Assembly (NCBI GenBank): GCA_045128275.1 | Contig: JBGVRH010000046.1 | Location: forward strand, 51,178-115,177 | Length of the DNA: 64,000 nucleotides | DNA from: Eubacteriales bacterium | GTDB lineage: Bacteria; Bacillota; Clostridia; Oscillospirales; CAG-272 | Direction: 5' to 3' | Part shown: positions 6,172 through 37,270 of the stretch, in pieces | Layout: every line of letters starts with the position of its first letter | How positions within the stretch are numbered: the stretch's first letter is position 1 | Translations under genes and position numbers: made by a program | The notes under the pieces: model-generated | Database searches by the model: none | What the model was told of the DNA's origin: nothing | The model's input: only the letters and a program-made list of their open reading frames with translations

Positions 6172-6300
6172 AGGGAGCGGGTACGGTCGTCGTAAACAGG
6201 GCGCACACATAGGTGCGCCCTACCGATAGGAATCGTAGCCCAAAGGATCAGCGCGACCGCCACCCCATCCCGGATACAGAGACCCGACAACCATAAAAAA

Positions 6301-25479: not shown

Positions 25480-26178
25480 ATGACCTACGTAGTTGCCAAC
25501 CTTCACGGACACCTGGAGGAGTACAAGACCCTCCTCCAAACCATCAAATTCAACGCCGACAGAGACGTTTTGTACGTTCTGGGCGATACCGTGGACTACG
25601 GCCCCGATCCCATGGGGCTGATCGAGGACATGAGCTACCGCCTCAACGTCTACCCCATCGCGGGCGAGCATGATTTCACCGCCGTCAAGATGCTGGCGGG
25701 ATATGAAAAGATGCAGGCCGCCATGGCAAAGGGACAGGCTCCCGACAAGGAGTTCGTCAGCGAGCTGACCGCCTGGGTGCAGGACGGTGGCGAGCCTACC
25801 CTGTCGGGCTACCGCGCCCTGGACAAGGATATGCAGGAGGGCGCTCTGGAGTACCTGTCGGATATGCCTCTCTACGAGGAGGTCACGGTGAACGGCCATG
25901 ACTACCTGCTGATCCACCAGGGTATCTACGATTTCACCCCCGACGTGGAGCTGGACTGGCTGGAGCCCGAGGACTTCTTCTCGGAGTCCCTCGACCCCAC
26001 CGCCAAGTATTTCGAGGACAAGACCATCATCGTGGGTCATACTCCCACCAGCGAATCCAACGGCGGCGCGGATCGCATCTTCTACGGCAACGGTACCATC
26101 TTCATCGACTGCGGTCTGGGCCGCGGCGGCCGACTGGGATGCCTGCGTCTGGAGGACGGTAAGGAGTTCTATGTCTAA
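25480..26178 (+). CDS. metallophosphoesterase (Ser/Thr phosphatase family)
   Basis: 232 aa with motifs VANLHGH, LGDTVDYG and GHTP. Confidence 0.8.
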   Translation: MTYVVANLHGHLEEYKTLLQTIKFNADRDVLYVLGDTVDYGPDPMGLIEDMSYRLNVYPIAGEHDFTAVKMLAGYEKMQAAMAKGQAPDKEFVSELTAWVQDGGEPTLSGYRALDKDMQEGALEYLSDMPLYEEVTVNGHDYLLIHQGIYDFTPDVELDWLEPEDFFSESLDPTAKYFEDKTIIVGHTPTSESNGGADRIFYGNGTIFIDCGLGRGGRLGCLRLEDGKEFYV

Positions 26179-27601
26179 GCAGAAAACCAACCGAAACGAA
26201 AAGCCCGAGGTGGTGACGGTCAGCATCCATGACCTGAACAACCTCGGTTGCGGCGTGGCCAGAATGCCCGAGGGGACTCCCGACGGGGGTCTTGTGGTAT
26301 TCGTCAAGGGCACCGTCACGGGGGACGTGGCGCGGGCGCAGATCATCAAGCGCACCAAGTCCTTCTGCGTGGGCAAGCTTTTGGAGATCGTGACCCCCTC
26401 CCCCATGCGGGCGGAGGAGGAGTTTTGTCCTGCTCCCGAGGCCTGCGGCGGTTGCGTGTACCGCCACCTCAAATATGAGGATGAACTGATCTCTAAGCAT
26501 GCCCGCGTGGAGAAGGCCTTCCGACAGGCGGGGCTTGCCGACGTGGTCATCCGTCCCGTGCTGACCGTCAAGCGGGAGGGCGAGCACGTCACCCGCGGCT
26601 ACCGCAACAAGGGGATGTACCCCGTCCGTCAGGGCAAGAATGGGATGGAGGCGGGCTTCTATGCCGCCAAGACCCACAAGGTGATCCCCTGCTTTGACTG
26701 CGCCCTCCAGCCCGATTTCTTCGGTGAGTTGGTGCGGGAGGTGTGCAAGCTCTGCGACAAGTACCGCGTGACGGCTTACGATGAAGAAACGGGAAAGGGC
26801 ACTCTGCGCCACATTTACCTGCGTTGCGCCGCCGACGGGACGACTCTCCTGACGCTGGTGATCAACGATGTGAAGCTCCCCAAGCCTGCCGCCGAGGGGC
26901 TGGTGCATGAGTTGGTGGGCCGCTTCCCCTCCCTGTGCGGTATTCTTTTGAATATCAACCGCGAGAACACCAACGTGGTGCTGGGTGACAAGTTCGTGAC
27001 CCTGTGGGGCAAGGACTATCTGGAGGATATCCTCTGCGGCAAGAAGCTCCGCTTGTCGGCGGGGTCCTTCTACCAAGTGAACCACGATGCCGCCGAGCTG
27101 CTCTACAACACCGCCGCCGACATGGCGGGTTTGACGGGGAGCGAGCATCTCCTTGACCTCTACTGCGGCGCGGGGAGCATCGGTCTTTCCATGGCCGACC
27201 GCGTGGCCGACGTGACGGGCATTGAGATCATCCCCGAGGCGGTGGAGTGCGCCCAAGTCAACGCCCGCCTGAATGGGCTGGACGAGACCCGCGCGCGGTT
27301 CTTCTGCGGGGACGCGTCCGACGCGCATAAGTTCCTGGCCGCCGCGGAGGAGAACGGCGCGCCCTCCCCCGATCTGGTGGTGATCGACCCGCCCCGCAAG
27401 GGCACGACCCGCGAGCTGATCCAAGAGATCGCGGCGCGGGGGATTCGACGGGTGGTGTATATCTCCTGTGAGCCGGAGACGCTGGGGCGGGATTGCGCGG
27501 TGTTTAGAGAGTTTGGGTATAGCATCGGGGAGGTTCAGCCGGTGGACTTATTTCCCAGAACAGGTCACGTCGAAAGTGTCGTTTGTCTGTCACGAAAATA
27601 A
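26171..27601 (+). CDS. rlmD: 23S rRNA (uracil-C5)-methyltransferase, RlmD/RumA family with TRAM domain
   Basis: 476 aa. N-terminal TRAM-like barrel, Cys cluster CPAPEACGGCVY, SAM motif DLYCGAGSIG, and YISCEPETLGRD...VDLFPRTGHVESV. Confidence 0.85.
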   Translation: MSKQKTNRNEKPEVVTVSIHDLNNLGCGVARMPEGTPDGGLVVFVKGTVTGDVARAQIIKRTKSFCVGKLLEIVTPSPMRAEEEFCPAPEACGGCVYRHLKYEDELISKHARVEKAFRQAGLADVVIRPVLTVKREGEHVTRGYRNKGMYPVRQGKNGMEAGFYAAKTHKVIPCFDCALQPDFFGELVREVCKLCDKYRVTAYDEETGKGTLRHIYLRCAADGTTLLTLVINDVKLPKPAAEGLVHELVGRFPSLCGILLNINRENTNVVLGDKFVTLWGKDYLEDILCGKKLRLSAGSFYQVNHDAAELLYNTAADMAGLTGSEHLLDLYCGAGSIGLSMADRVADVTGIEIIPEAVECAQVNARLNGLDETRARFFCGDASDAHKFLAAAEENGAPSPDLVVIDPPRKGTTRELIQEIAARGIRRVVYISCEPETLGRDCAVFREFGYSIGEVQPVDLFPRTGHVESVVCLSRK

Positions 27602-27817
27602 GCGATTTTGACCCATAAAATGGCACTTTTTCGGCATTTTAAGCGGTTTTTGAGCCAAAAAAACGATATTTGAAATCAAAACACCTCAATTTGATTTGGG
27701 ACAAATGATGATTTTGAGCAAAGATCGAAACTCTAATTTACAGCTGTATAATCACGGACGGATATTTCAAATGCAAATCTCCGTGTATTGAGGAATTGTC
27801 TAATAAAAGCAAGAGGG

Positions 27818-29032
27818 ATGGTGGTTGTTGTGACTAATCAAGAAAAGGGCTTGGAGTTTGAAAAGCGGTGCTTTTCAAAGCTAGTGGATCTAAATTTTAC
27901 GGATTTATCTTTGACACGAAATACCGATAATGGTGCAGATATTATTGGAACATTAAATGGAACTAGGTATGTTTTCCAATGCAAAAACCATAAAAAGCCT
28001 CAGGGAAATAGATGTGTTCAAGAGGTGATTGCTGCGCAAAAGTTATATAAAGGTAATAGGTGTGTTGTTATTTCACATAGTTCGTTTACTTCTGCGGCAA
28101 TTGCTTTGGCTAAAGCTAATAACTGTATTCTTATTAAAGCAAATGTTTTTTTTGAGTTGTCTGATTTTCCTCCAAAAGATTACTCTGCGCAATTTGATCA
28201 AAACACTCCAGTGTATGATTTTGAATATCAACTAATTGAAAAATATGAAGAAATAAAGAAGAGGTTAGGGAGAACTCCTAAGTGGGAGGAACTTGATGCA
28301 CATACCCGTTATGTAATAACGAAGAAGTATAAAAATTATAGCATATTTTTGTCTTCAATAGGCGATAAAAAATGTACGGCTAAGCATTCAGACGATGAAC
28401 TTAAAAAAGAATATATGCGTATAAGAGAACTTTTGAACAGAGTTCCCACAGGTGCCGACATCCGCGCTTATAGTTCATTCCCATATAACCAGTTTCATGA
28501 GTATCCGTTAACCAAACTGCAAAAAGAATGTGGAGATCGACCTAATATAGAACGTGGGGTATCGAAGGAAGCATTAACACATTCATATTTTGAATTGGAG
28601 AAAAAACTAGGCCATCCTCCCGCTGTTAAAGAAATTGATCAATTTGGAACATATAGGTCGTCATATTATGTTCGCAGGTGGGGGAGTATAGACAACTTCC
28701 TGCTAGAAATTGGCAGAACGAGGACTTCTGCTGGATTACCTAGACGTTATACCAATGATGAGGTAATTGCAATATATTCACTTATAAAGATATTGCTATC
28801 TTTGGTAAAAGAGAGTGATAATTATGAAATCAATCAAACCGTTCTAGAACAACTTCAGTTTAATAGTGGAACGCTCATTTCGCCAGCTACCTTTTCAAAC
28901 AAATTTGGTGATTGGAAAGCTTTTTGCACATATTTAGAAGAAAACAATATTAACAATGAATTATTAAAAATCGTGAGGCGAATTCGTTGCGAAGGAATAC
29001 AAGTTCTGTTTACGGATACAGTACCGTCATAA
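27818..29032 (+). CDS. Mrr-like restriction endonuclease domain protein with HEAR-type repeats
   Basis: 404 aa, low GC. The N-terminus (...DNGADIIGTLNGTRYVFQCKNHKKPQGNRCVQEV) resembles the Mrr_cat D..(E/Q)xK core. It is followed by three ~45-aa helical repeats (..LGRTPKWEELD.., ..LNRVPTGADIR.., ..LGHPPAVKEID..). Confidence 0.65.
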   Translation: MVVVVTNQEKGLEFEKRCFSKLVDLNFTDLSLTRNTDNGADIIGTLNGTRYVFQCKNHKKPQGNRCVQEVIAAQKLYKGNRCVVISHSSFTSAAIALAKANNCILIKANVFFELSDFPPKDYSAQFDQNTPVYDFEYQLIEKYEEIKKRLGRTPKWEELDAHTRYVITKKYKNYSIFLSSIGDKKCTAKHSDDELKKEYMRIRELLNRVPTGADIRAYSSFPYNQFHEYPLTKLQKECGDRPNIERGVSKEALTHSYFELEKKLGHPPAVKEIDQFGTYRSSYYVRRWGSIDNFLLEIGRTRTSAGLPRRYTNDEVIAIYSLIKILLSLVKESDNYEINQTVLEQLQFNSGTLISPATFSNKFGDWKAFCTYLEENNINNELLKIVRRIRCEGIQVLFTDTVPS

Positions 29033-29473: not shown

Positions 29474-30799
29474 ATGTCCCCCTTTATCATAGCCATCATC
29501 CTCTTCGCCATCACCTACGTCCTTCTCTTCACCCTGCCCAAGGCGCGCTCCTACATAGCCCTTTGCTCGGCGGTGATCTTCTCGGTGTGGCTGACCTTCT
29601 TCTGCGCTGACATCGAGTTCGGTCTCGGTACCATCGTGGGTGCCATCGACTTCAATATCCTCATGATGATCGCGGGCACCATGGGCATCGTGACCCTGTT
29701 CATCGAGTCCAAAATGCCCATGCGGATCGCTGACGTGATGCTGTCCAAGTTCAAGAACGTCAAGATGGCCATTGTGGCCATGGCGGTGCTTTCGGGCGTG
29801 GTGTCGGCCTTCGTGGACAACGTGGCCACGGTCTTGATGATCGCCCCCATCGCTCTGGCGGTGTGCAAGAAGCAGAATATGTCCCCCGTCCCCGCCATCA
29901 TCTCCATCGCGGTCTCCTCCAACCTGCAGGGCGCGGCCACGCTGGTGGGCGACACCACCTCCATCCTGCTGGGCGGTTACGCCGGCATGAACTTCTTCGA
30001 CTTCTTCTGGTTCCTCGGCCGTCCCGGTATCTTTTGGGCGGTGGAGCTGGGCGCGGCGCTGACTGTGGTGATCCTCCTGTTCCTCTTCCGCAAGGAGACC
30101 AATCCTCTGACCCTCACCGACAAGACCGAGGTCACAGACTACGTTCCCTCCTACCTCATGGTGGGTGTTGTGGTGGCGCTGATCCTGGCCTCCTTCATCC
30201 CCCAGCCCGCGGGCGGCGCGCTTTTGACTCTATACGAGCTTCGCAACGGTATCATCTGCATGGTGCTTTTGTTGGTGGGCATCGTGATCAATCTCTGCCG
30301 TACCAGGAGCTTTGAGTCCACCAAGGGTGTGTTCAAGGAGATGGACTACCAGACCCTGCTCCTGCTGGCTTCCCTCTTCGTGGTCATTCAGGGCATCACC
30401 TCGGCGGGGGTTATCGACAAGCTGGCCGAGCTTCTGGTGAGCCTCGGCGGCGGCAATCTGTTCCTCATGTACACCGTCATCGTCTTCGCCTCGGTGCTGA
30501 TCTCGGCGGTGGTGGACAACATCCCCTACGTGCTGACCATGCTCCCCGTGGTGACGGGGGTGGCCCAGGCCATGGGGGTGGAGCCTTACGTCCTGTACTT
30601 CGGCCTCTTCGTGGGCGCGACCCTGGGCGGCAACATCACCCCCATCGGTGCCAGCGCGAACATCACGGGTATCGGTATTCTCCGCAAGGAGGGGCATGAG
30701 GTCAGAGCGAAGGACTTCATGAAGATCAGCGTGCCGTTTACGCTGACGGCGGTGCTTTCGGGGTATTTGTTTATTTGGGTTTTCTGGGGGCTTTTGTGA
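29474..30799 (+). CDS. ArsB/NhaD/CitMHS-superfamily permease
   Basis: 441-aa polytopic protein with internal duplication, typical of ion-transporter superfamily permeases. Confidence 0.7.
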   Translation: MSPFIIAIILFAITYVLLFTLPKARSYIALCSAVIFSVWLTFFCADIEFGLGTIVGAIDFNILMMIAGTMGIVTLFIESKMPMRIADVMLSKFKNVKMAIVAMAVLSGVVSAFVDNVATVLMIAPIALAVCKKQNMSPVPAIISIAVSSNLQGAATLVGDTTSILLGGYAGMNFFDFFWFLGRPGIFWAVELGAALTVVILLFLFRKETNPLTLTDKTEVTDYVPSYLMVGVVVALILASFIPQPAGGALLTLYELRNGIICMVLLLVGIVINLCRTRSFESTKGVFKEMDYQTLLLLASLFVVIQGITSAGVIDKLAELLVSLGGGNLFLMYTVIVFASVLISAVVDNIPYVLTMLPVVTGVAQAMGVEPYVLYFGLFVGATLGGNITPIGASANITGIGILRKEGHEVRAKDFMKISVPFTLTAVLSGYLFIWVFWGLL

Positions 30800-30802
30800 T
30801 CA

Positions 30803-30889
30803 CGCCCGCAGGGCATATCTCGCCCGAAGGGCATATCGTGCCAAACGGGCATATCTCGCCCAAAGGGCATCTCGCGCGCCGTTAGGCGC
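30803..30889. repeat. array of ~18-nt mini-hairpin units (orientation A)
   Basis: CGCCCGCAGGGCATATCT / CGCCCGAAGGGCATATCG / TGCCAAACGGGCATATCT / CGCCCAAAGGGCATCT... Starts 3 nt after the permease stop. It is the reverse complement of 31302-31372. Confidence 0.9.
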
Positions 30890-30919
30890 TCCATTCCATG
30901 ATTTCAAGGAGAACCTACC

Positions 30920-31294
30920 ATGGACAAGATCACCATACGCGAGTTATCCATAGATTTGACAGTTGACATTACGAAGGTTTGCGATCCACTCAGAGGCCGC
31001 AGTATCTTCATCAACCAGCTTCTCCGTGCCTGTTCCTCTATCGGCGCGAACGCCAGTGAAGCCAGATACGCGCAGAGCAACGCTGACTTTATCAATAAGC
31101 TTGAAATCGCGCTGAAGGAGTGCAACGAGACCGATTATTGGTTGGAAATACTGGTAAAGACAAACTCCATCAGTCAAGACGATTATCGCAGATTGTGCAG
31201 TAAATGCAGTCACATCAAGCGAAAGCTGATCGCGTCTATCACAACTGTTAAGAACAAAACAAATTCACAGTTCCCTACAGAACCGCAACCTTAA
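30920..31294 (+). CDS. four-helix-bundle protein (23S rRNA intervening-sequence protein / Avd family)
   Basis: 124 aa, QLLRACSSIGANASEARYAQSNADFINKLEIALKECNETDYWLEIL matches the family signature as remembered. Lower GC than flanks. Confidence 0.8.
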   Translation: MDKITIRELSIDLTVDITKVCDPLRGRSIFINQLLRACSSIGANASEARYAQSNADFINKLEIALKECNETDYWLEILVKTNSISQDDYRRLCSKCSHIKRKLIASITTVKNKTNSQFPTEPQP

Positions 31295-31301
31295 AGTAAT
31301 T

Positions 31302-31372
31302 GCGATATGCCCTTCGGGCACGATATGCCTACGGCGCGATATGCCCGTTGGGCGCGATATGCCCTTCGGGCG
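31302..31372. repeat. array of ~18-nt mini-hairpin units (orientation B)
   Basis: GATATGCCCTTCGGGCAC / GATATGCCTACGGCGC / GATATGCCCGTTGGGCGC / GATATGCCCTTCGGGCG. Starts 7 nt after the four-helix ORF stop. Confidence 0.9.
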
Positions 31373-31387
31373 TGAAAGGAGTCTCCC

Positions 31388-32211
31388 ATGAACGTCATCC
31401 ACACAACCCTCGAGATCGGCGCCACCGCGCCCTTCAGGATCATCCACCTCTCCGACACCCATCTGACCTACGCCGATCTCCGCGACGGCCAGCGCAAGGT
31501 GGATCTCATTGATTGGCGGCTTCCCTCCTTCCCCAACGCTGAAAAGGTGCTGGCCGAGGCGGGGGAGCTGTCCCGTGAGCTGAACGCCCCCATCTTCCAC
31601 ACGGGGGATCTCATCGACTACGTATCCCTGGCCAATCTGGAGGCGGTGAAGGCCTTCACCGACACCCACGACGTGTACATGGCCACGGGCAACCATGAGT
31701 TCTCCCTCTACGTAGGGGAGGCCAAGGAGGACGCGGCTTACCGCAACCAAAGTCTGCCCGCGGTGCAGGCCTGCTTTGGGAACAACATCCGCATGGATTC
31801 CCGTGTGGTGAACGGGGTCAATTTCGTCGCGCTGGACAACGGATACTACCTCTTTGAGCCCGAGCAGTTCGAGTTCCTCAAGGGAGAGGTGGCCAAAGGG
31901 CTGCCCATCGTGCTGATGATGCACACGCCCCTGTACGATCCCAAGTTCTACGAGCGCATGATGAGCTACTGCCCCTGCGCCTACCTTATGGGCGTGCCCG
32001 AGGAGCTGATGGTGGGCTAACCCCCGACCGCTACATCCAGCAGAAGGCGGACGAGGTCACGCTGAAGATGATGGAGTACATCGCAAAGGAGCCGCTCATC
32101 AAGTACATTCTGACGGGGCATCAGCATTTTGATTTCGAGAGCGTGTACGCCGAGAGAGTGCCCCAGATCGTGACGGGGATCGAGACGGCGAGGGTGATCG
32201 AGTTCGTGTAA
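31388..32211 (+). pseudogene. metallophosphoesterase, frameshifted
   Basis: The 210-aa ORF stops at TAA 32018-32020. The reading continues stop-free in the -1 frame to TAA 32209-32211 and carries the missing GHxH motif (ILTGHQHFD). The break lies next to a C5 run at 32021-32025. Confidence 0.7.
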
Positions 32212-32222
32212 AGGAGACCGCT

Positions 32223-33560
32223 ATGCTCACCCAAGATGCATATAAGCAGTTCTTTGAATCCCGTGACTTCCAAAAGAAATGGAAGGCCTACAAAACCGCC
32301 TTTGGGAAGAATCTGGACGGGCTGTTCGGGGATAACTACAACGCGAAGGTACGGCTGGCCGAGGGGTTGCAGTTACTATTGGACGGCAAGCTCCACGACG
32401 CGTATCACGGCCACCTCCGCCACTTCGCAGGCCTCTGCGAGACCCAGCTTGACCGCGCCGTTTTCGATCGGTTGGTCGCCCTCTGCTTCAACGAGTCGGA
32501 GATGTCCGCGGTGCGGGAGGGGGATTGGGTCAAACGCTCGTTGGGGGATGATTTCCTCTATGCCCGCGTGGAGAAACGGACGGCAGAGGGCGCTGTGGTC
32601 AAGGAGATCTTTACCCGCGGCTTGGTCTATATGAGGGATCAGGTGCGGGATCAGCCCTATTTCCGCTTGGAGATCACCGATCTGAAATGCTACCAGCTTC
32701 CCTCCCGTGCTGAGCTGAAGACCATCCAAGCCTATTGGGATGCCCACCCCGAGGAGGAGGCGTTGACCCGCCGCCACACCGAGCGGATGCTTTCCTATCG
32801 GGATGCCGCCTTGAAGAACGGTATGCAGGAGGCCGCCTGGGAGCACTGTCAATTCCACTTCTATCGGCGCACCACCGACAAGGCGGCCTTTGCTCTCAAT
32901 CTTCGGGATTATGGCACCCACATCCGCGTGGTCTACGGCTTCACGACCATTCCCGACGAGGATTTCTTCCGCGACCACGGAGGGGACGACGACGATATCA
33001 AGCTCCGCCACGCCGCTATCATACGGGACGATGAAGATGAAGCCGAGACCGCCCGCTCCATACAGGCGGTGTTTGAGCAGTACCGCCACACGGCCAAGGA
33101 CGATATCCTCGCGCTGAAAAAGGAGCGGCAGAAGGAGTTTCTGTCCCGCATCCACGCCTACCTCAAGCCCTTGGGCTTTGCCAAGAAGGCTTCCAAGTGG
33201 ACGAAAAAGCTCCCCGACGGCTTTGTTTTGGAGTTTGAGGCGCAGAAATCCGCCTATTCGGATGTGTATTACTTCAATATCTCGGTGTACCCTGACGGTC
33301 AGCTCTACCACGCCTGCTTCAGCACCCGGCTGACCACCGACGGAGAGCAGACCCACAACTGGCAGATCCTCACCGACGGGCAATTCCGTGATATCATGGA
33401 AAGAGCCATTAAGACCTATATCCAACCCATCCTGCAAACGCCCTTTTCCGAGCTGGGCAAGAAATCCCGCATCTGGGCGAGGTGCCTCTGTCAGCGGGAC
33501 AGGTGCGAGGCTTGCTGGGTGGAGAAGAATCTGTGGGAGACGAAAGAGGAGACGAAATGA
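32223..33560 (+). CDS. hypothetical protein (C-terminal DUF4304-like region)
   Basis: 445 aa, coding-like composition, AGGAG RBS. No confident family. Confidence 0.6.
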   Translation: MLTQDAYKQFFESRDFQKKWKAYKTAFGKNLDGLFGDNYNAKVRLAEGLQLLLDGKLHDAYHGHLRHFAGLCETQLDRAVFDRLVALCFNESEMSAVREGDWVKRSLGDDFLYARVEKRTAEGAVVKEIFTRGLVYMRDQVRDQPYFRLEITDLKCYQLPSRAELKTIQAYWDAHPEEEALTRRHTERMLSYRDAALKNGMQEAAWEHCQFHFYRRTTDKAAFALNLRDYGTHIRVVYGFTTIPDEDFFRDHGGDDDDIKLRHAAIIRDDEDEAETARSIQAVFEQYRHTAKDDILALKKERQKEFLSRIHAYLKPLGFAKKASKWTKKLPDGFVLEFEAQKSAYSDVYYFNISVYPDGQLYHACFSTRLTTDGEQTHNWQILTDGQFRDIMERAIKTYIQPILQTPFSELGKKSRIWARCLCQRDRCEACWVEKNLWETKEETK

Positions 33561-34153
33561 ATCATCCTCCGCGCCATCCCCGAAAGGAGACCGCTATGGA
33601 ACGTCAGAAAGATCTCCCGCGCAAGACCCAATACCACATCGCCGCCTGGATCCTCGCGGCGGTCTCGGCCTTCCTCATCCTGCTTTTGGTGGAGTCCGCG
33701 CTGAATATCCCTCTGCTCCATGCCACCCATGAAGACTTTCCCCGCAGAGAGTACACCTTTGTTTCTCTGCGGATCAACAAGGATCCCGAGGACGGAAGGC
33801 GTACCTATCTTATGACCGTGGAGGAGGAGACTCTGCCTCTGCGGATCCCCGATCTGATGGACTCGCCACAGCTTCGCTCTCGGCTGGAGGCCTTTGAGGC
33901 GGGAGACAGATTCTACTGCTACGTTGACGAGAATTCCGCTTCTCTGGAGGCGGTGGAGATGGGAATCTATACCCACGTGGATTTTTACACCCTGGAGGAG
34001 TATCAGGCCGAGCTTGCCGTGAGTCTTTACTCGCTCTTGCCCATCGGCGGGGTGATACTGGTGATCTCGGTGGGGGCCTCGGTCTGGTGCTTTGTGAAGG
34101 CGAGGAGATGCGGACTGGAGACGCCCGTAGCCGTGGATGATTCCATCTCTTAA
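33557..34153 (+). CDS. hypothetical membrane-anchored protein
   Basis: 198 aa from MNHPP. ATGA overlap with the upstream stop. TM helices near both the N- and C-termini. Confidence 0.55.
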   Translation: MNHPPRHPRKETAMERQKDLPRKTQYHIAAWILAAVSAFLILLLVESALNIPLLHATHEDFPRREYTFVSLRINKDPEDGRRTYLMTVEEETLPLRIPDLMDSPQLRSRLEAFEAGDRFYCYVDENSASLEAVEMGIYTHVDFYTLEEYQAELAVSLYSLLPIGGVILVISVGASVWCFVKARRCGLETPVAVDDSIS

Positions 34154-34166
34154 TAAATAATGAAAA

Positions 34167-34238
34167 CGATATGCCCTTCGGGCGCGAGATGCCCGTTGGG
34201 CGCGAGATGCCCGTTGGGCGCGGTATGCCCTGCGGGCG
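34167..34238. repeat. array of 18-nt mini-hairpin units (orientation B)
   Basis: GATATGCCCTTCGGGCGC / GAGATGCCCGTTGGGCGC / GAGATGCCCGTTGGGCGC / GGTATGCCCTGCGGGCG. Starts 13 nt after the upstream stop. Confidence 0.9.
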
Positions 34239-34256
34239 TAATAGAAAGGATAGAAT

Positions 34257-35396
34257 ATGCTCCCCTGCCCCTACGCGAAAAAATGCGGAGGCTGCTCCCT
34301 CCAGAACCTCCCCTATGAAGAACAGCTCCACTTGAAGCAGGCCAAGCTCATTAAGCTCCTTGGCCGTTTTGGCCGTGTGGAGGAGATCATCGGCATGGAG
34401 GATCCCACCCACTACCGCAACAAGATCCAAGCGGCCTTCCGCTCCAAGAGTGGGAAGGTGGTGTCGGGTGTGTACCAGTCTGCCTCCCGCCGCATCGTGG
34501 AGGTGGAGTCCTGTATGCTGGAGGACGAGTGCGCCGCGCCTATCCTGGCTACCGTCCGCAAGCTCTGCGCCTCCATGAAGATCCGTCCCTATGATCTGGA
34601 ATCGGGTCAGGGCTTTCTGCGGCACGTCTTGATCCGCAAGGGCTTTGTGAGCGGGGAGATCATGGTGGTGCTGGTCACAACCAAGGGCGAGTTCCGATCC
34701 GAGCGATCCTTTGTGAATGAACTGCTCCGTCGCCATCCCGAGATCACCACGGTGGTGCGGAATATCAACCCCACCGACACCGCCCTGTTTCTGGGGAGCG
34801 AGAGCCATATCCTCCACGGGGAGGGCTACATCACCGACCGCCTCTGCGGGCTGGAGTTCCGCATCAGCCCCCGCTCCTTCTATCAGGTCAATCCCATCCA
34901 GACCGAGATCCTGTACGGCAAGGCCAAGGAGTTCGCGGGTCTGACTGGGAGTGAGACCGTCATCGACGCCTACTGCGGCACGGGTACCATCGGGCTGACC
35001 GTGGCCTCGGGTGCCAAGGAGGTGATCGGCGTTGAGGTGAATAAGGACGCGGTGGCCGATGCTATGGAGAACGCCAAGCGCAACGGTGTCACCAACGCGG
35101 TCTTCCACGCCGCCGACGCGGGGGAGTTTATGGAGGCCATGGCCGCGAAGGGGCAGAGTGCCGACGTGGTCATCACCGACCCGCCGAGAGCGGGGTGCAG
35201 CGGGAAGTTTTTGCACAGTCTTATGAAGCTGGCTCCCAAGAGGATCGTGTACGTGTCCTGCAATCCCGAGACGTTGGCGCGGGATCTGTATACCTTGAGT
35301 AAGGGCGGGTATAAGGTGAGGAGGATACAGCCGGTGGATATGTTTCCGTTTACCTCCCATGCGGAGGTGGTCGTGGGGGTGGAGAGGAAAATATGA
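34257..35396 (+). CDS. RumA-family RNA (uracil-C5)-methyltransferase (no TRAM domain)
   Basis: 379 aa. CPYAKKCGGCSLQN Cys cluster, DAYCGTGTIG SAM motif, YVSCNPETLARD...VDMFPFTSHAEVV. Confidence 0.85.
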   Translation: MLPCPYAKKCGGCSLQNLPYEEQLHLKQAKLIKLLGRFGRVEEIIGMEDPTHYRNKIQAAFRSKSGKVVSGVYQSASRRIVEVESCMLEDECAAPILATVRKLCASMKIRPYDLESGQGFLRHVLIRKGFVSGEIMVVLVTTKGEFRSERSFVNELLRRHPEITTVVRNINPTDTALFLGSESHILHGEGYITDRLCGLEFRISPRSFYQVNPIQTEILYGKAKEFAGLTGSETVIDAYCGTGTIGLTVASGAKEVIGVEVNKDAVADAMENAKRNGVTNAVFHAADAGEFMEAMAAKGQSADVVITDPPRAGCSGKFLHSLMKLAPKRIVYVSCNPETLARDLYTLSKGGYKVRRIQPVDMFPFTSHAEVVVGVERKI

Positions 35397-35974
35397 GTTT
35401 ACCTGAACGAAAGAACCATCGTTTAAGACCATATGATTACGGAAAAAGCGGCTACTATTTCATTACGATCTGTACAAACAACCGCTTGCCGCTTCTATCT
35501 GTGATCACCGCACGGGAACAAAACTCCCCTTTGGTTCCCTCTACCCCCATTGTAGGGAGCGGTGCCCTCACCGCTCCGCAACCTTTGGTCACCCTTACAC
35601 TATTTGGTAAGACGGTACTGGAAAGCTGGAACAAAATTGAAACCATGAATGAAAATATCGCAATTGATAAGTATATTTTCATGCCCGACCATATTCACGG
35701 CATTATTCGTATAGATAACCCCGAAAAGATCCAACACCCAAAAGAGAATTTTGACTTTCAAGTGGCGGAGCGGTGGGGGCACCGCTCCCTACCGGGGGTT
35801 ATCCGAGATTTCAAATCCGTGACCACCCGTCAATACAAATCCATGTTTCATGTGAATGAATCGTTGTGGCAGTCCTCTTATTATGACACAGTGATCCGCA
35901 CACGCGAACAGTATATTGATATATGGAATTATATCGAGAACAATCCCCAAAAATGGTTATTTGAACACAGTTAA
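35393..35974 (+). CDS. REP-associated tyrosine transposase-like (RAYT / IS200-like Y1 HUH) protein
   Basis: 193 aa. YDYGKSGYYFITICTNNR, HUH motif FMPDHIHGII, C-terminal catalytic-Tyr region LWQSSYYDTVIRTREQYIDIWNYIENNPQKW. Lower GC. ATGA overlap with the upstream stop. Confidence 0.8.
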   Translation: MSLPERKNHRLRPYDYGKSGYYFITICTNNRLPLLSVITAREQNSPLVPSTPIVGSGALTAPQPLVTLTLFGKTVLESWNKIETMNENIAIDKYIFMPDHIHGIIRIDNPEKIQHPKENFDFQVAERWGHRSLPGVIRDFKSVTTRQYKSMFHVNESLWQSSYYDTVIRTREQYIDIWNYIENNPQKWLFEHS

Positions 35975-35997
35975 TAGCGTGAAGAAAGGAACCGCCA

Positions 35998-36558
35998 ATG
36001 TCCAAAAGATCCCGTGCCCGTACCAAGGCGCGACAATCGGAAAAGCAGACCGCCAGTGATCTGGAATTGAAGAAAGCACACATTCGTGATGCCTCCTCCG
36101 AGCAGGTGATTTATTTGATCCTGTGGGGGGTGCTTACCGCCGTATGCCTGGCAGTCCCCGTGTTTTTTCAGCCATCCTCGGTTTCCCTTTGGTTTCTCCC
36201 CGTGGCACCTGCCATTCTGACCGCCATATGGGCAGTGCGGGCGATCCGTTTCCGTCGGGTCGCAAGGCTGTACGAGGGCATTTGCCACGCAAGCGAGGAG
36301 ACCGTGTCGTTTCGCTGCCGCAAGGTGGATTTCTATGAGCGGCAGATCTCCAAGTGGAACTCGATCCTGTTCTGCATCGCCTTTTACGCTGAGGACGGAC
36401 GGGTATTTTACTACGTTTACGCCTATCGGGAGGGACTGTCCCCCCTTGCGGTCAAGACGATCCGAAAACGGTTTACGGGTGCCGACGTGGAATTTTTGTG
36501 CTACCGCGGTACTACGGCCGTAAAAGAATTTGATCCCTACCAACTCATTCTCACATAG
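35998..36558 (+). CDS. hypothetical membrane protein
   Basis: 186 aa with a basic N-terminus, two TM helices and a C-terminal soluble domain. Confidence 0.5.
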   Translation: MSKRSRARTKARQSEKQTASDLELKKAHIRDASSEQVIYLILWGVLTAVCLAVPVFFQPSSVSLWFLPVAPAILTAIWAVRAIRFRRVARLYEGICHASEETVSFRCRKVDFYERQISKWNSILFCIAFYAEDGRVFYYVYAYREGLSPLAVKTIRKRFTGADVEFLCYRGTTAVKEFDPYQLILT

Positions 36559-36571
36559 AAAGGAACCCACC

Positions 36572-37270
36572 ATGAACATCCTCTTCATCGGCAACAGCTA
36601 CACCTACTTTTTCGACCTCCCTTCCCTTTTCGCTGACCTCTGCCGCGCAAACGGTCACGACGTCCGCGTGGATTCCGTCACTGCCGGCGGCCGCAAGCTG
36701 CACGAGTGTCTGACCGAATTCTATAGCGATCTGAACGTGGGCGACCCGCTGGGCAAGAAGATCTCCGAGCTTCTGGAGGAGGTGGAGTACGACGTGCTGA
36801 TCCTGCAGGAGCAGTCCTGTCTCCCCTACCACAACCCCGAGCTGTTCTTCGCGGGGGCGGTGGGGCTGTCCACCATCATCGGGGCGTGGCGCACCATCCT
36901 GTACGCGACTTGGGGCCGCATGGACGGCAGTGAGGATCTGGACTACTTCGGCTGGACCCGTCTTTCCATGACCCGGGGACTGTATGATTCCTACTGCCAC
37001 GCCGCCTCGCTGGTTCACGGCGAGGTGTCCCCCGTGGGTCTGTGCTTCGCCAAGGCGGTGGAGACCACCCCCGAGATCGACCTGTACGATCCCGACAAGT
37101 CCCATCCCTCCTACGCGGGCTCCTGTGTGACGGCTCTGTGCCACTACAAGACGGTGTTCGGGGAGATGCCTGCCGATCTGTCGGCGCTGAAGCTGGATCG
37201 TGAGGCGGTGGCCAAGCTTACGGCCATCGTGGACGAGGTGGTGCAGGTAGAAAAGGAAATTGAATCATGA
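36572..37270 (+). CDS. SGNH/GDSL-like hydrolase family protein
   Basis: 232 aa from MNILFIGNSYTYF (GNS block I-like motif). N-terminal ORF extension trimmed. Confidence 0.55.
   Translation: MNILFIGNSYTYFFDLPSLFADLCRANGHDVRVDSVTAGGRKLHECLTEFYSDLNVGDPLGKKISELLEEVEYDVLILQEQSCLPYHNPELFFAGAVGLSTIIGAWRTILYATWGRMDGSEDLDYFGWTRLSMTRGLYDSYCHAASLVHGEVSPVGLCFAKAVETTPEIDLYDPDKSHPSYAGSCVTALCHYKTVFGEMPADLSALKLDREAVAKLTAIVDEVVQVEKEIES

Follow-up and report, generated by a model that had tools for sequence, protein, structure and literature searches.

A subclass 2.4-type RAYT gene with an inverted pair of REP hairpins in its reading frame in a gut Clostridia genome

Repetitive extragenic palindromes (REPs) and their inverted doublets (REPINs) are among the commonest repeats of bacterial genomes, and their spreading by REP-associated tyrosine transposases (RAYTs, or TnpA_REP) is still poorly understood. 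Here we describe a RAYT gene at positions 35393–35974 (+) of a 64,000-nt window (contig 46, C46:51178–115177) of the 3.0-Mb, 112-contig draft genome G000, a metagenome-assembled genome (MAG) of a bovine gut Clostridia member; coordinates without a contig prefix refer to this window. The closest described proteins are those of TnpA_REP subclass 2.4, also known as RAYT group 4 (Bertels et al. 2017). As described by Quentin et al. (2018, BMC Genomics 19:475, PMC6006769), this subclass has a mean length of 194 aa, an NH[IFV]H form of the HuH motif, WQ and YIxNNP motifs, and long canonical REPs, and its “unique feature” is that REPs occur in frame within tnpAREP, in a peripheral loop that generally lies between HuH and Y. 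Internal REPs have been on record for this subclass since 2018, and the window locus is a clean further member. The window RAYT agrees with that description in its length (193 aa), xH[IFV]H-type HuH motif, WQ and YIENNP, in long canonical GTAG-tagged REPs with a G-C rich stem base, in an in-frame REP placed after HuH in a peripheral loop, and in a patchy taxonomic distribution. It differs in having DHIH instead of the NHIH seen in most homologues and in a second RAYT-like gene of the same genome, in lacking flanking REPs, and in having a second REP before HuH, which makes an inverted doublet around the HuH codons, a pair geometry that the text of that paper does not describe. The host also differs, Cyanobacteria and Bacteroidetes being stressed there.

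The RAYT biochemistry that we found in the literature concerns one enzyme of another subclass, TnpA_REP (RayT) of Escherichia coli, with its REPs and bacterial interspersed mosaic elements (BIMEs) (structure 4er8; Messing et al. 2012, PMC3479197; Corneloup et al. 2021, PMC8266576). The window protein shares with it the HUH-Y1 fold (template modeling [TM] score 0.52–0.60) and has a W-Q...R segment and a Y...N catalytic pair at aligned positions, and the E. coli substrates are GTAG-tagged hairpins too. The E. coli enzyme, however, belongs to subclass 2.2 and is about 18% identical to the window RAYT in a profile alignment, its REPs have bulged stems, and its gene has flanking REPs and no internal ones, the opposite of the placement described here. 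The REPIN–RAYT systems of Pseudomonas (Bertels and Rainey 2011) resemble the locus in using inverted REP doublets as the repeat unit, in having a single-copy RAYT per REPIN family, and in REPIN families that outlive their RAYT. The Pseudomonas RAYTs, members of groups 2 and 3, have flanking REPINs and are described as vertically inherited, whereas the window RAYT appears to be a recent insertion carrying its doublet inside the reading frame, and REPIN copies number in the tens in the window genome versus hundreds in Pseudomonas. With TnpA of the IS200/IS605 insertion sequences (ISs; IS608, ISDra2) the window RAYT shares the fold and, presumably, the catalytic chemistry and hairpin recognition on single-stranded DNA. 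Those elements have end hairpins outside tnpA, are multi-copy, and often carry tnpB, none of which was seen for the window RAYT.

We consider it probable, at roughly 75%, that the open reading frame (ORF) is a subclass 2.4 RAYT (TnpA_REP, RAYT group 4) acting on one REP family of its genome, type A, and the corresponding REPINs in single-stranded DNA. The subclass assignment fits the motifs, the length, and the REP-in-gene trait as read from the sequence. By analogy with E. coli TnpA_REP, the protein would bind a GTAG-tagged hairpin in single-stranded DNA, would read the GTAG through its WQ...R segment (residues 159–169), and would cut and rejoin the strand via a phosphotyrosine link at Y180, with a metal held by H100 and H102. 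The cognate substrate would be the type-A REP, of which the gene carries two inverted copies, translated into two predicted surface loops. Expression is probably by read-through and translational coupling from the upstream gene rlmD, because the RAYT start codon overlaps the rlmD stop codon; the gene itself lacks ends. We infer binding, cleavage, and present-day activity from the E. coli analogy. The locus is a compact, well-defined candidate enzyme–substrate pair from gut Clostridia in which the gene names its substrate by carrying it, and its interest, modest as it stands, would grow if the embedded REPs proved functional.

The HUH motif PDHIHGII (residues 98–105, including H100 and H102) is encoded at 35684–35707 (+). 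Both histidines are invariant in 54 homologues, and the motif lies on a strand (residues 100–107) of an AlphaFold (AF2) model made from these homologues (predicted local distance difference test [pLDDT] 81). By homologue alignment the catalytic tyrosine is Y180 in YIENNP (35930–35947, +), accompanied four residues on by N184; both are invariant across the same homologues and align with Y115 and N119 of 4er8 (PMC6006769). A first-pass annotation of the window had correctly recognized the 193-aa ORF, its HUH motif, a GC content below that of its surroundings (0.44–0.47 vs. 0.59 for the genome), the overlap with the upstream rumA-family gene, and the absence of directly flanking REPs or IS ends. 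It had also taken the product for a RAYT-type HUH-Y1 protein without IS ends, a view upheld by the profiles, the fold, and the ORF-sized insertion described below. Its placing of the catalytic tyrosine in WQSSYYDTVIR (residues 159–169; 35867–35899, +) has to be revised. This segment aligns with W94–R104 of 4er8 and for that reason is read as the counterpart of the GTAG-binding segment, W94, Q95, W99, E100, H101, and R104 being labelled as 5' GTAG-binding residues in figure S11 of PMC6006769. All catalytic and GTAG-contact positions of the window protein are intact and invariant.

The profile search that had been proposed along with the RAYT assignment gave REP_Tyr_transpos (NF047646) as the best NCBIfam model, at 53 bits (E 3e-14) against a curated cut-off of 80, versus 16.9 bits for the IS200 model; the Pfam Y1_Tnp score also stayed below its cut-off. 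A Foldseek search with the AF2 model matched ISDra2 and IS608 TnpA and E. coli TnpA_REP within the TM range given above, with IS200/IS605 transposases as the top matches. The protein belongs to the HUH-Y1 family, which the predicted fold confirms despite the sub-threshold Pfam score.

Two REPs overlooked by the first-pass annotation lie inside the ORF and bracket the HUH codons, one on the 5' and one on the 3' side. Each is 31 nt long, in frame, and bears the REP signature of a GTAG head, a 9-bp stem, and a 4-nt loop. The first (35552–35582, +; GTAGGGAGCGGTGCCCTCACCGCTCCGCAAC) has stem arms at 35556–35564 and 35569–35577 and a GCAAC tail, and encodes residues 54–64 (VGSGALTAPQP). The second (35762–35792, −; stem arms 35767–35775 and 35780–35788) encodes residues 124–134 (AERWGHRSLPG) and is the reverse complement of the first at 94% over 31 nt. 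The chance expectation of the GTAG hairpin pattern is 0.04 in the window, and no GTAG-tagged hairpin was found within 1.5 kb outside the ORF. In the model the first peptide falls in a partly low-confidence loop (pLDDT <50 for residues 44–59) and the second in a low-confidence loop (mean pLDDT 54–56 in blocks 111–130). In single-strand folding, whether as RNA or as DNA, the two REPs pair with each other, and the resulting stem, about 34 bp long, encloses the HUH-coding segment (z-scores −6.7 and −6.5). An imperfect hairpin with a CTAC foot (GGGAAC...GTTCCC), also inside the ORF at 35514–35544 (−) and just 5' of the first REP, may be due to chance or may be a decayed REP.

The first embedded REP is identical to type-A REPs dispersed in the genome, which holds about 130–155 GTAG-tagged hairpins of several families. 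Type A, with the consensus GTAGGGAGCG(AC/GT)GCCCTC(GT/AC)CGCTCC, has 40 copies at ≤3 mismatches; types B (GTAGGGGAGGGGCTTGCCCCTCCC) and C (GTAGGGGCGGCCCCATGTGGCCGCCC) have about 40 copies each and type D (GTAGGGGCGACCATTGGTCGCCC) about 14. The type-A counts are approximate because repeats break the assembly, 21 of the 40 copies lying ≤200 nt from a contig end. Type A often occurs as inverted doublets about 110 nt apart (e.g., C18:3974–4110, C59:39112–39247, C51:26047–26182, and C98:48634–48769), and these doublets are REPINs. They and the pair in the gene are also alike in the adjoining bases: on one side CATT precedes GTAG, and the tails are GCAAC and GCCAC. When the genomic REPINs were tested as internally deleted copies of the REP-to-REP segment of the gene, the likeness extended a few bases past the REPs and not through the spacer. 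About ten type-A REPs have CCTCTGCC in front of them and GCGGGCGGCCACGC behind (C5:4853, C22:9745, C31:7365, C62:4096, C65:4261, C76:8316, and others); copies bordered in this way suggest a composite, BIME-like element in which type A is joined to another GC-rich hairpin. REPs of types B and C are embedded in RAYTs of two relatives, G018 (locus L015) and G026 (locus L026).

Type-A REPs accompany the gene in related genomes. Among 61 genomes, including the window genome, the RAYT lineage (homologues of ≥50% identity) was found in four only: G000 itself, its closest relative G005 (95% identical), G017 (65%), and G046 (50%), a member of another family of the same order. With ≤2 mismatches allowed, these four have 40, 21, 54, and 24 type-A REPs, respectively. 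Among genomes without the lineage, G015 (74% complete, no RAYT match) has 35, G026 has two, and the other 55 have 0–3. The resulting two-by-two table (4, 0, 1, 56) gives a Fisher exact P of ~1e-5, shared ancestry being ignored. In 401 genomes sampled evenly across the order, the lineage was present only in G000 and G046 (E ≤ 1e-35), and true type-A REPs were numerous only in these two, G248 (13), and G123 (9); in G123 and G248 the REPs embedded in the RAYTs are of other types. The gene without type-A REPs was not encountered in any of about 460 genomes. The genomes with REPs and no gene fit either gene loss with persistence of the repeats or an unassembled, repeat-containing gene. Related genomes provide natural controls: in one the gene occurs with few other repeats, and several have the repeats and lack the gene.

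The internal REP pair recurs in homologous genes. The window RAYT had been described as solitary, which holds for its lineage, present as one copy in its own genome, and does not hold for the wider family, since a second RAYT-like gene with 35% identity lies at C74:94995–95564. This paralogue embeds two type-D REPs (C74:95190–95212, +, and 95361–95383, −) at homologous protein positions, translated as VGAIIDRP and GRPLVAPT; the two REPs differ by a compensatory stem change. Nearly all homologues in the 61 related genomes have an embedded REP pair, the REP sequence varying by lineage. In 80 homologous loci drawn from a collection of 185,579 species, a REP on the plus strand before HUH and one on the minus strand after it were seen in 47, a REP on one side only in 19 (5 before, 14 after), no embedded REP in 11, and other arrangements in three. 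The 20 bases following GTAGGG have a mean identity of 85% within a gene versus 44% between genes. From this arrangement and this difference in identity, the embedded pair is a conserved trait of the subfamily evolving in concert, and not a chance insertion.

A tentative suggestion, which we hold as possible rather than probable, is that the inverted pair has a working role conserved in this RAYT subclass. It might serve as a master REPIN that links the specificities of enzyme and substrate and reseeds the genome, or as a self-recognition site by which the catalytic segment is throttled, excised, or inverted. Such a role is favored over passive tolerance because position and orientation are conserved and the sequence changes are concerted; the stem of about 34 bp enclosing the HUH codons is counted as a third pointer. 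The placement around these codons is a testable hint that internal REPs do something.

The RAYT gene follows rlmD (34257–35396, +), which encodes a 379-aa 23S rRNA (uracil-C5) methyltransferase of the RlmD/RumA family (TIGR00479 rumA, 376.6 bits). The RAYT ATG overlaps the rlmD TGA at 35393–35395 (ATGA, 35393–35396), and a Shine–Dalgarno-like GGAGAGG (35381–35387) ends five bases before it. This overlap recurs in G005 and in every contig read that has the exact protein. A 186-aa predicted membrane ORF (ORF186; 35998–36558, +) lies 3' of the RAYT and is absent from more distant members of the genus. We compared the DNA of 34700–36700 with the genus and read the junctions. In G005 the order rlmD–RAYT–ORF186 is kept at 93% identity. 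G017 has an empty site with flanks 91–94% identical, in which rlmD is followed by 58 nt and then ORF186, and G015 is also without a RAYT at this site. In G001 and G008, rlmD is directly followed by the gene at 36530, with neither RAYT nor ORF186 between. The native RlmD C-terminus (...ERKI) is kept, from which we place the inserted piece at ~35390–35985, the ORF and little else. The RAYT thus appears to be a recent ORF-sized insertion shared with the closest relative only, and from the absence of ORF186 in G001 and G008 the spacer 3' of rlmD would have taken up two successive insertions, ORF186 and the RAYT.

The 65%-identical allele of G017 follows the other rumA-family gene, 8 kb from the rlmD site, and its place corresponds to 27601/29474 of the window. 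With the rlmD site and this second rumA-family gene (26171–27601), both RAYT insertion sites of the clade are just downstream of a rumA-family methyltransferase gene. Where G017 has its RAYT, G000 has a 414-aa low-GC ORF (27788–29032). All RAYT genes examined have 40–45% GC in genomes of 50–60% GC. The exact protein (100%) occurs in nine metagenome contigs, of which the eight displayed come from different samples and have the same neighbors, and the insertion site is fixed within the species. The gene had earlier been called domesticated; it has no ends of its own, as that term implied, yet it is a recent insertion. In this clade the gene is gained and lost as a bare ORF, which is at odds with the common view of domesticated transposases as fixed and vertically inherited.

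Signs of activity come from REPIN sites and from metatranscriptomes. At the type-A REPIN site on C98 the element is present in G000 and G005, and G012 has only 20 nt there; the site on C18 is ~123 nt shorter in G015. The RAYT locus is present in bovine gut metagenomes, and two metatranscriptome runs contain contigs identical to the gene (100%) whose only breaks fall at the two REPs. From 35364 onward, contigs of runs X18 and X19 are 100% identical to the RAYT, with the right side as in the window; the ~249 nt upstream are unlike the window, end in ...GGAATTAGGGACAACCGTC, and are absent from the genome and all fetched loci. The same metatranscriptome sample also holds a G017-like rlmD 3' end without RAYT. 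A joint 35583→35756 in DNA run X2 was considered as an excision of the HUH segment and rejected; the joint, which has a 30-nt side and lies on the REPs, is read as a contig of another genomic REPIN. No strand-changing joints indicating inversion between the embedded REPs were reported, rare forms being liable to be hidden by contigs.

The first-pass annotation linked the gene to a hairpin repeat family, rightly as the type-A REPs show, and named the wrong one: it had the protein spread or maintain the 18-nt mini-hairpin arrays and P/Q hairpin elements of the window. The array it pointed to is real (34167–34238), lies 1.15 kb 5' of the RAYT, and its unit (ATGCCCNNNGGGCRYGA) is abundant in the same subclade (106 units in G000, 139 in G017, and 28 in G015). 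However, these units lack a conserved tetranucleotide foot, be it GTAG or another, their stems are only 4 bp, and the REPs that the gene embeds are of type A. The co-occurrence check proposed at the time also separates the two repeats, type-A REPs following the gene in four of four carriers and the 18-nt units failing to do so: G005 has five despite its 95%-identical gene and G046 has none, whereas the 28 of G015 are found with no RAYT (G026 has eight and the other 55 genomes 0–4). The P/Q hairpins, counted in the window genome only, have no GTAG tag. We regard this partnership as highly improbable. It is also very unlikely that the gene is the transposase of an autonomous, self-moving IS200/IS605-type element. 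The insertion relative to G017, G015, G001, and G008, the GC content of 44% in a genome of 59%, the G017 allele at another site, and the Foldseek list headed by IS200/IS605 transposases would all suit such an element. However, each genome has one copy of the lineage, the insert consists essentially of the ORF alone with no room outside it for left and right end hairpins, tnpB is absent, the IS200 model gives its low score, and the site is the same in all nine metagenome contigs.

The gene could instead be an inactive or re-purposed remnant, with the type-A REPs as leftovers and the embedded REPs merely tolerated. The persistence of families B and C in G000 with no matching RAYT, the type-A REPs kept without the gene in G015, G123, and G248, and the low-confidence loops that hold the REP peptides, in line with the view in PMC6006769 that embedded REPs have little effect on the protein, all speak for it. 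Such a remnant would not be expected to keep its catalytic and GTAG-contact positions intact, to encode a protein unchanged (100% identity) in nine contigs from different samples, or to have REPIN sites that vary between close relatives, and random tolerated insertions would be unlike an embedded pair that keeps its position and orientation in 47 of 80 distant homologues and changes its REP sequence in concert. We therefore consider this unlikely.

Several observations weigh against the preferred reading, a subclass 2.4 RAYT with type-A REPs as its substrate. Both profile scores are below their cut-offs, that for Pfam PF01797 (Y1_Tnp) at 22.9 bits by 0.1 bit under a gathering cut-off of 23, a shortfall that we attribute to two inserted loops; model NF047646 is built on other RAYT subclasses. 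No flanking REPs, and hence no REPtron, accompany the gene, although the description of subclass 2.4 in PMC6006769 includes flanking as well as internal REPs. The embedded copies have the minority GT/AC stem variant (9–10 copies), the genomic majority being AC/GT (~27). Families B and C reach their ~40 copies each with no RAYT in G000 embedding matching REPs, from which the REP–RAYT relationship is not strictly one-to-one. The co-occurrence amounts to about two phylogenetically independent groups, the genus subclade and G046, and 9–35 type-A REPs are found without the lineage in G015, G123, and G248, all of them incomplete (74–90%). The metatranscriptome contigs suggest that the RAYT is transcribed, with DNA carry-over in RNA contigs being possible, and no biochemical data on any subclass 2.4 member were found in the literature.

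Other features of the window touch the gene less directly. The sole other GTAG-tagged REP of the window is type C-like (6199–6223, −; GTAGGGCGCACCTATGTGTGCGCCC). At gathering thresholds, Rfam over the window gave only a tmRNA gene (2113–2480, −; RF00023, 145 bits) and no RNA family over the RAYT or its REPs; at permissive thresholds over 30700–36100, the sole match was a non-significant Gut-1 at 31318–31383 (21.6 bits, sub-threshold, E 0.9). Besides the array at 34167–34238, 18-nt arrays are located at 30799–30870 and 31302–31372. Across the genome these arrays come in mirror-image pairs with a spacing of about 80 nt; they are restricted to G000, G017, and G015, apart from a few in G005 and G026.

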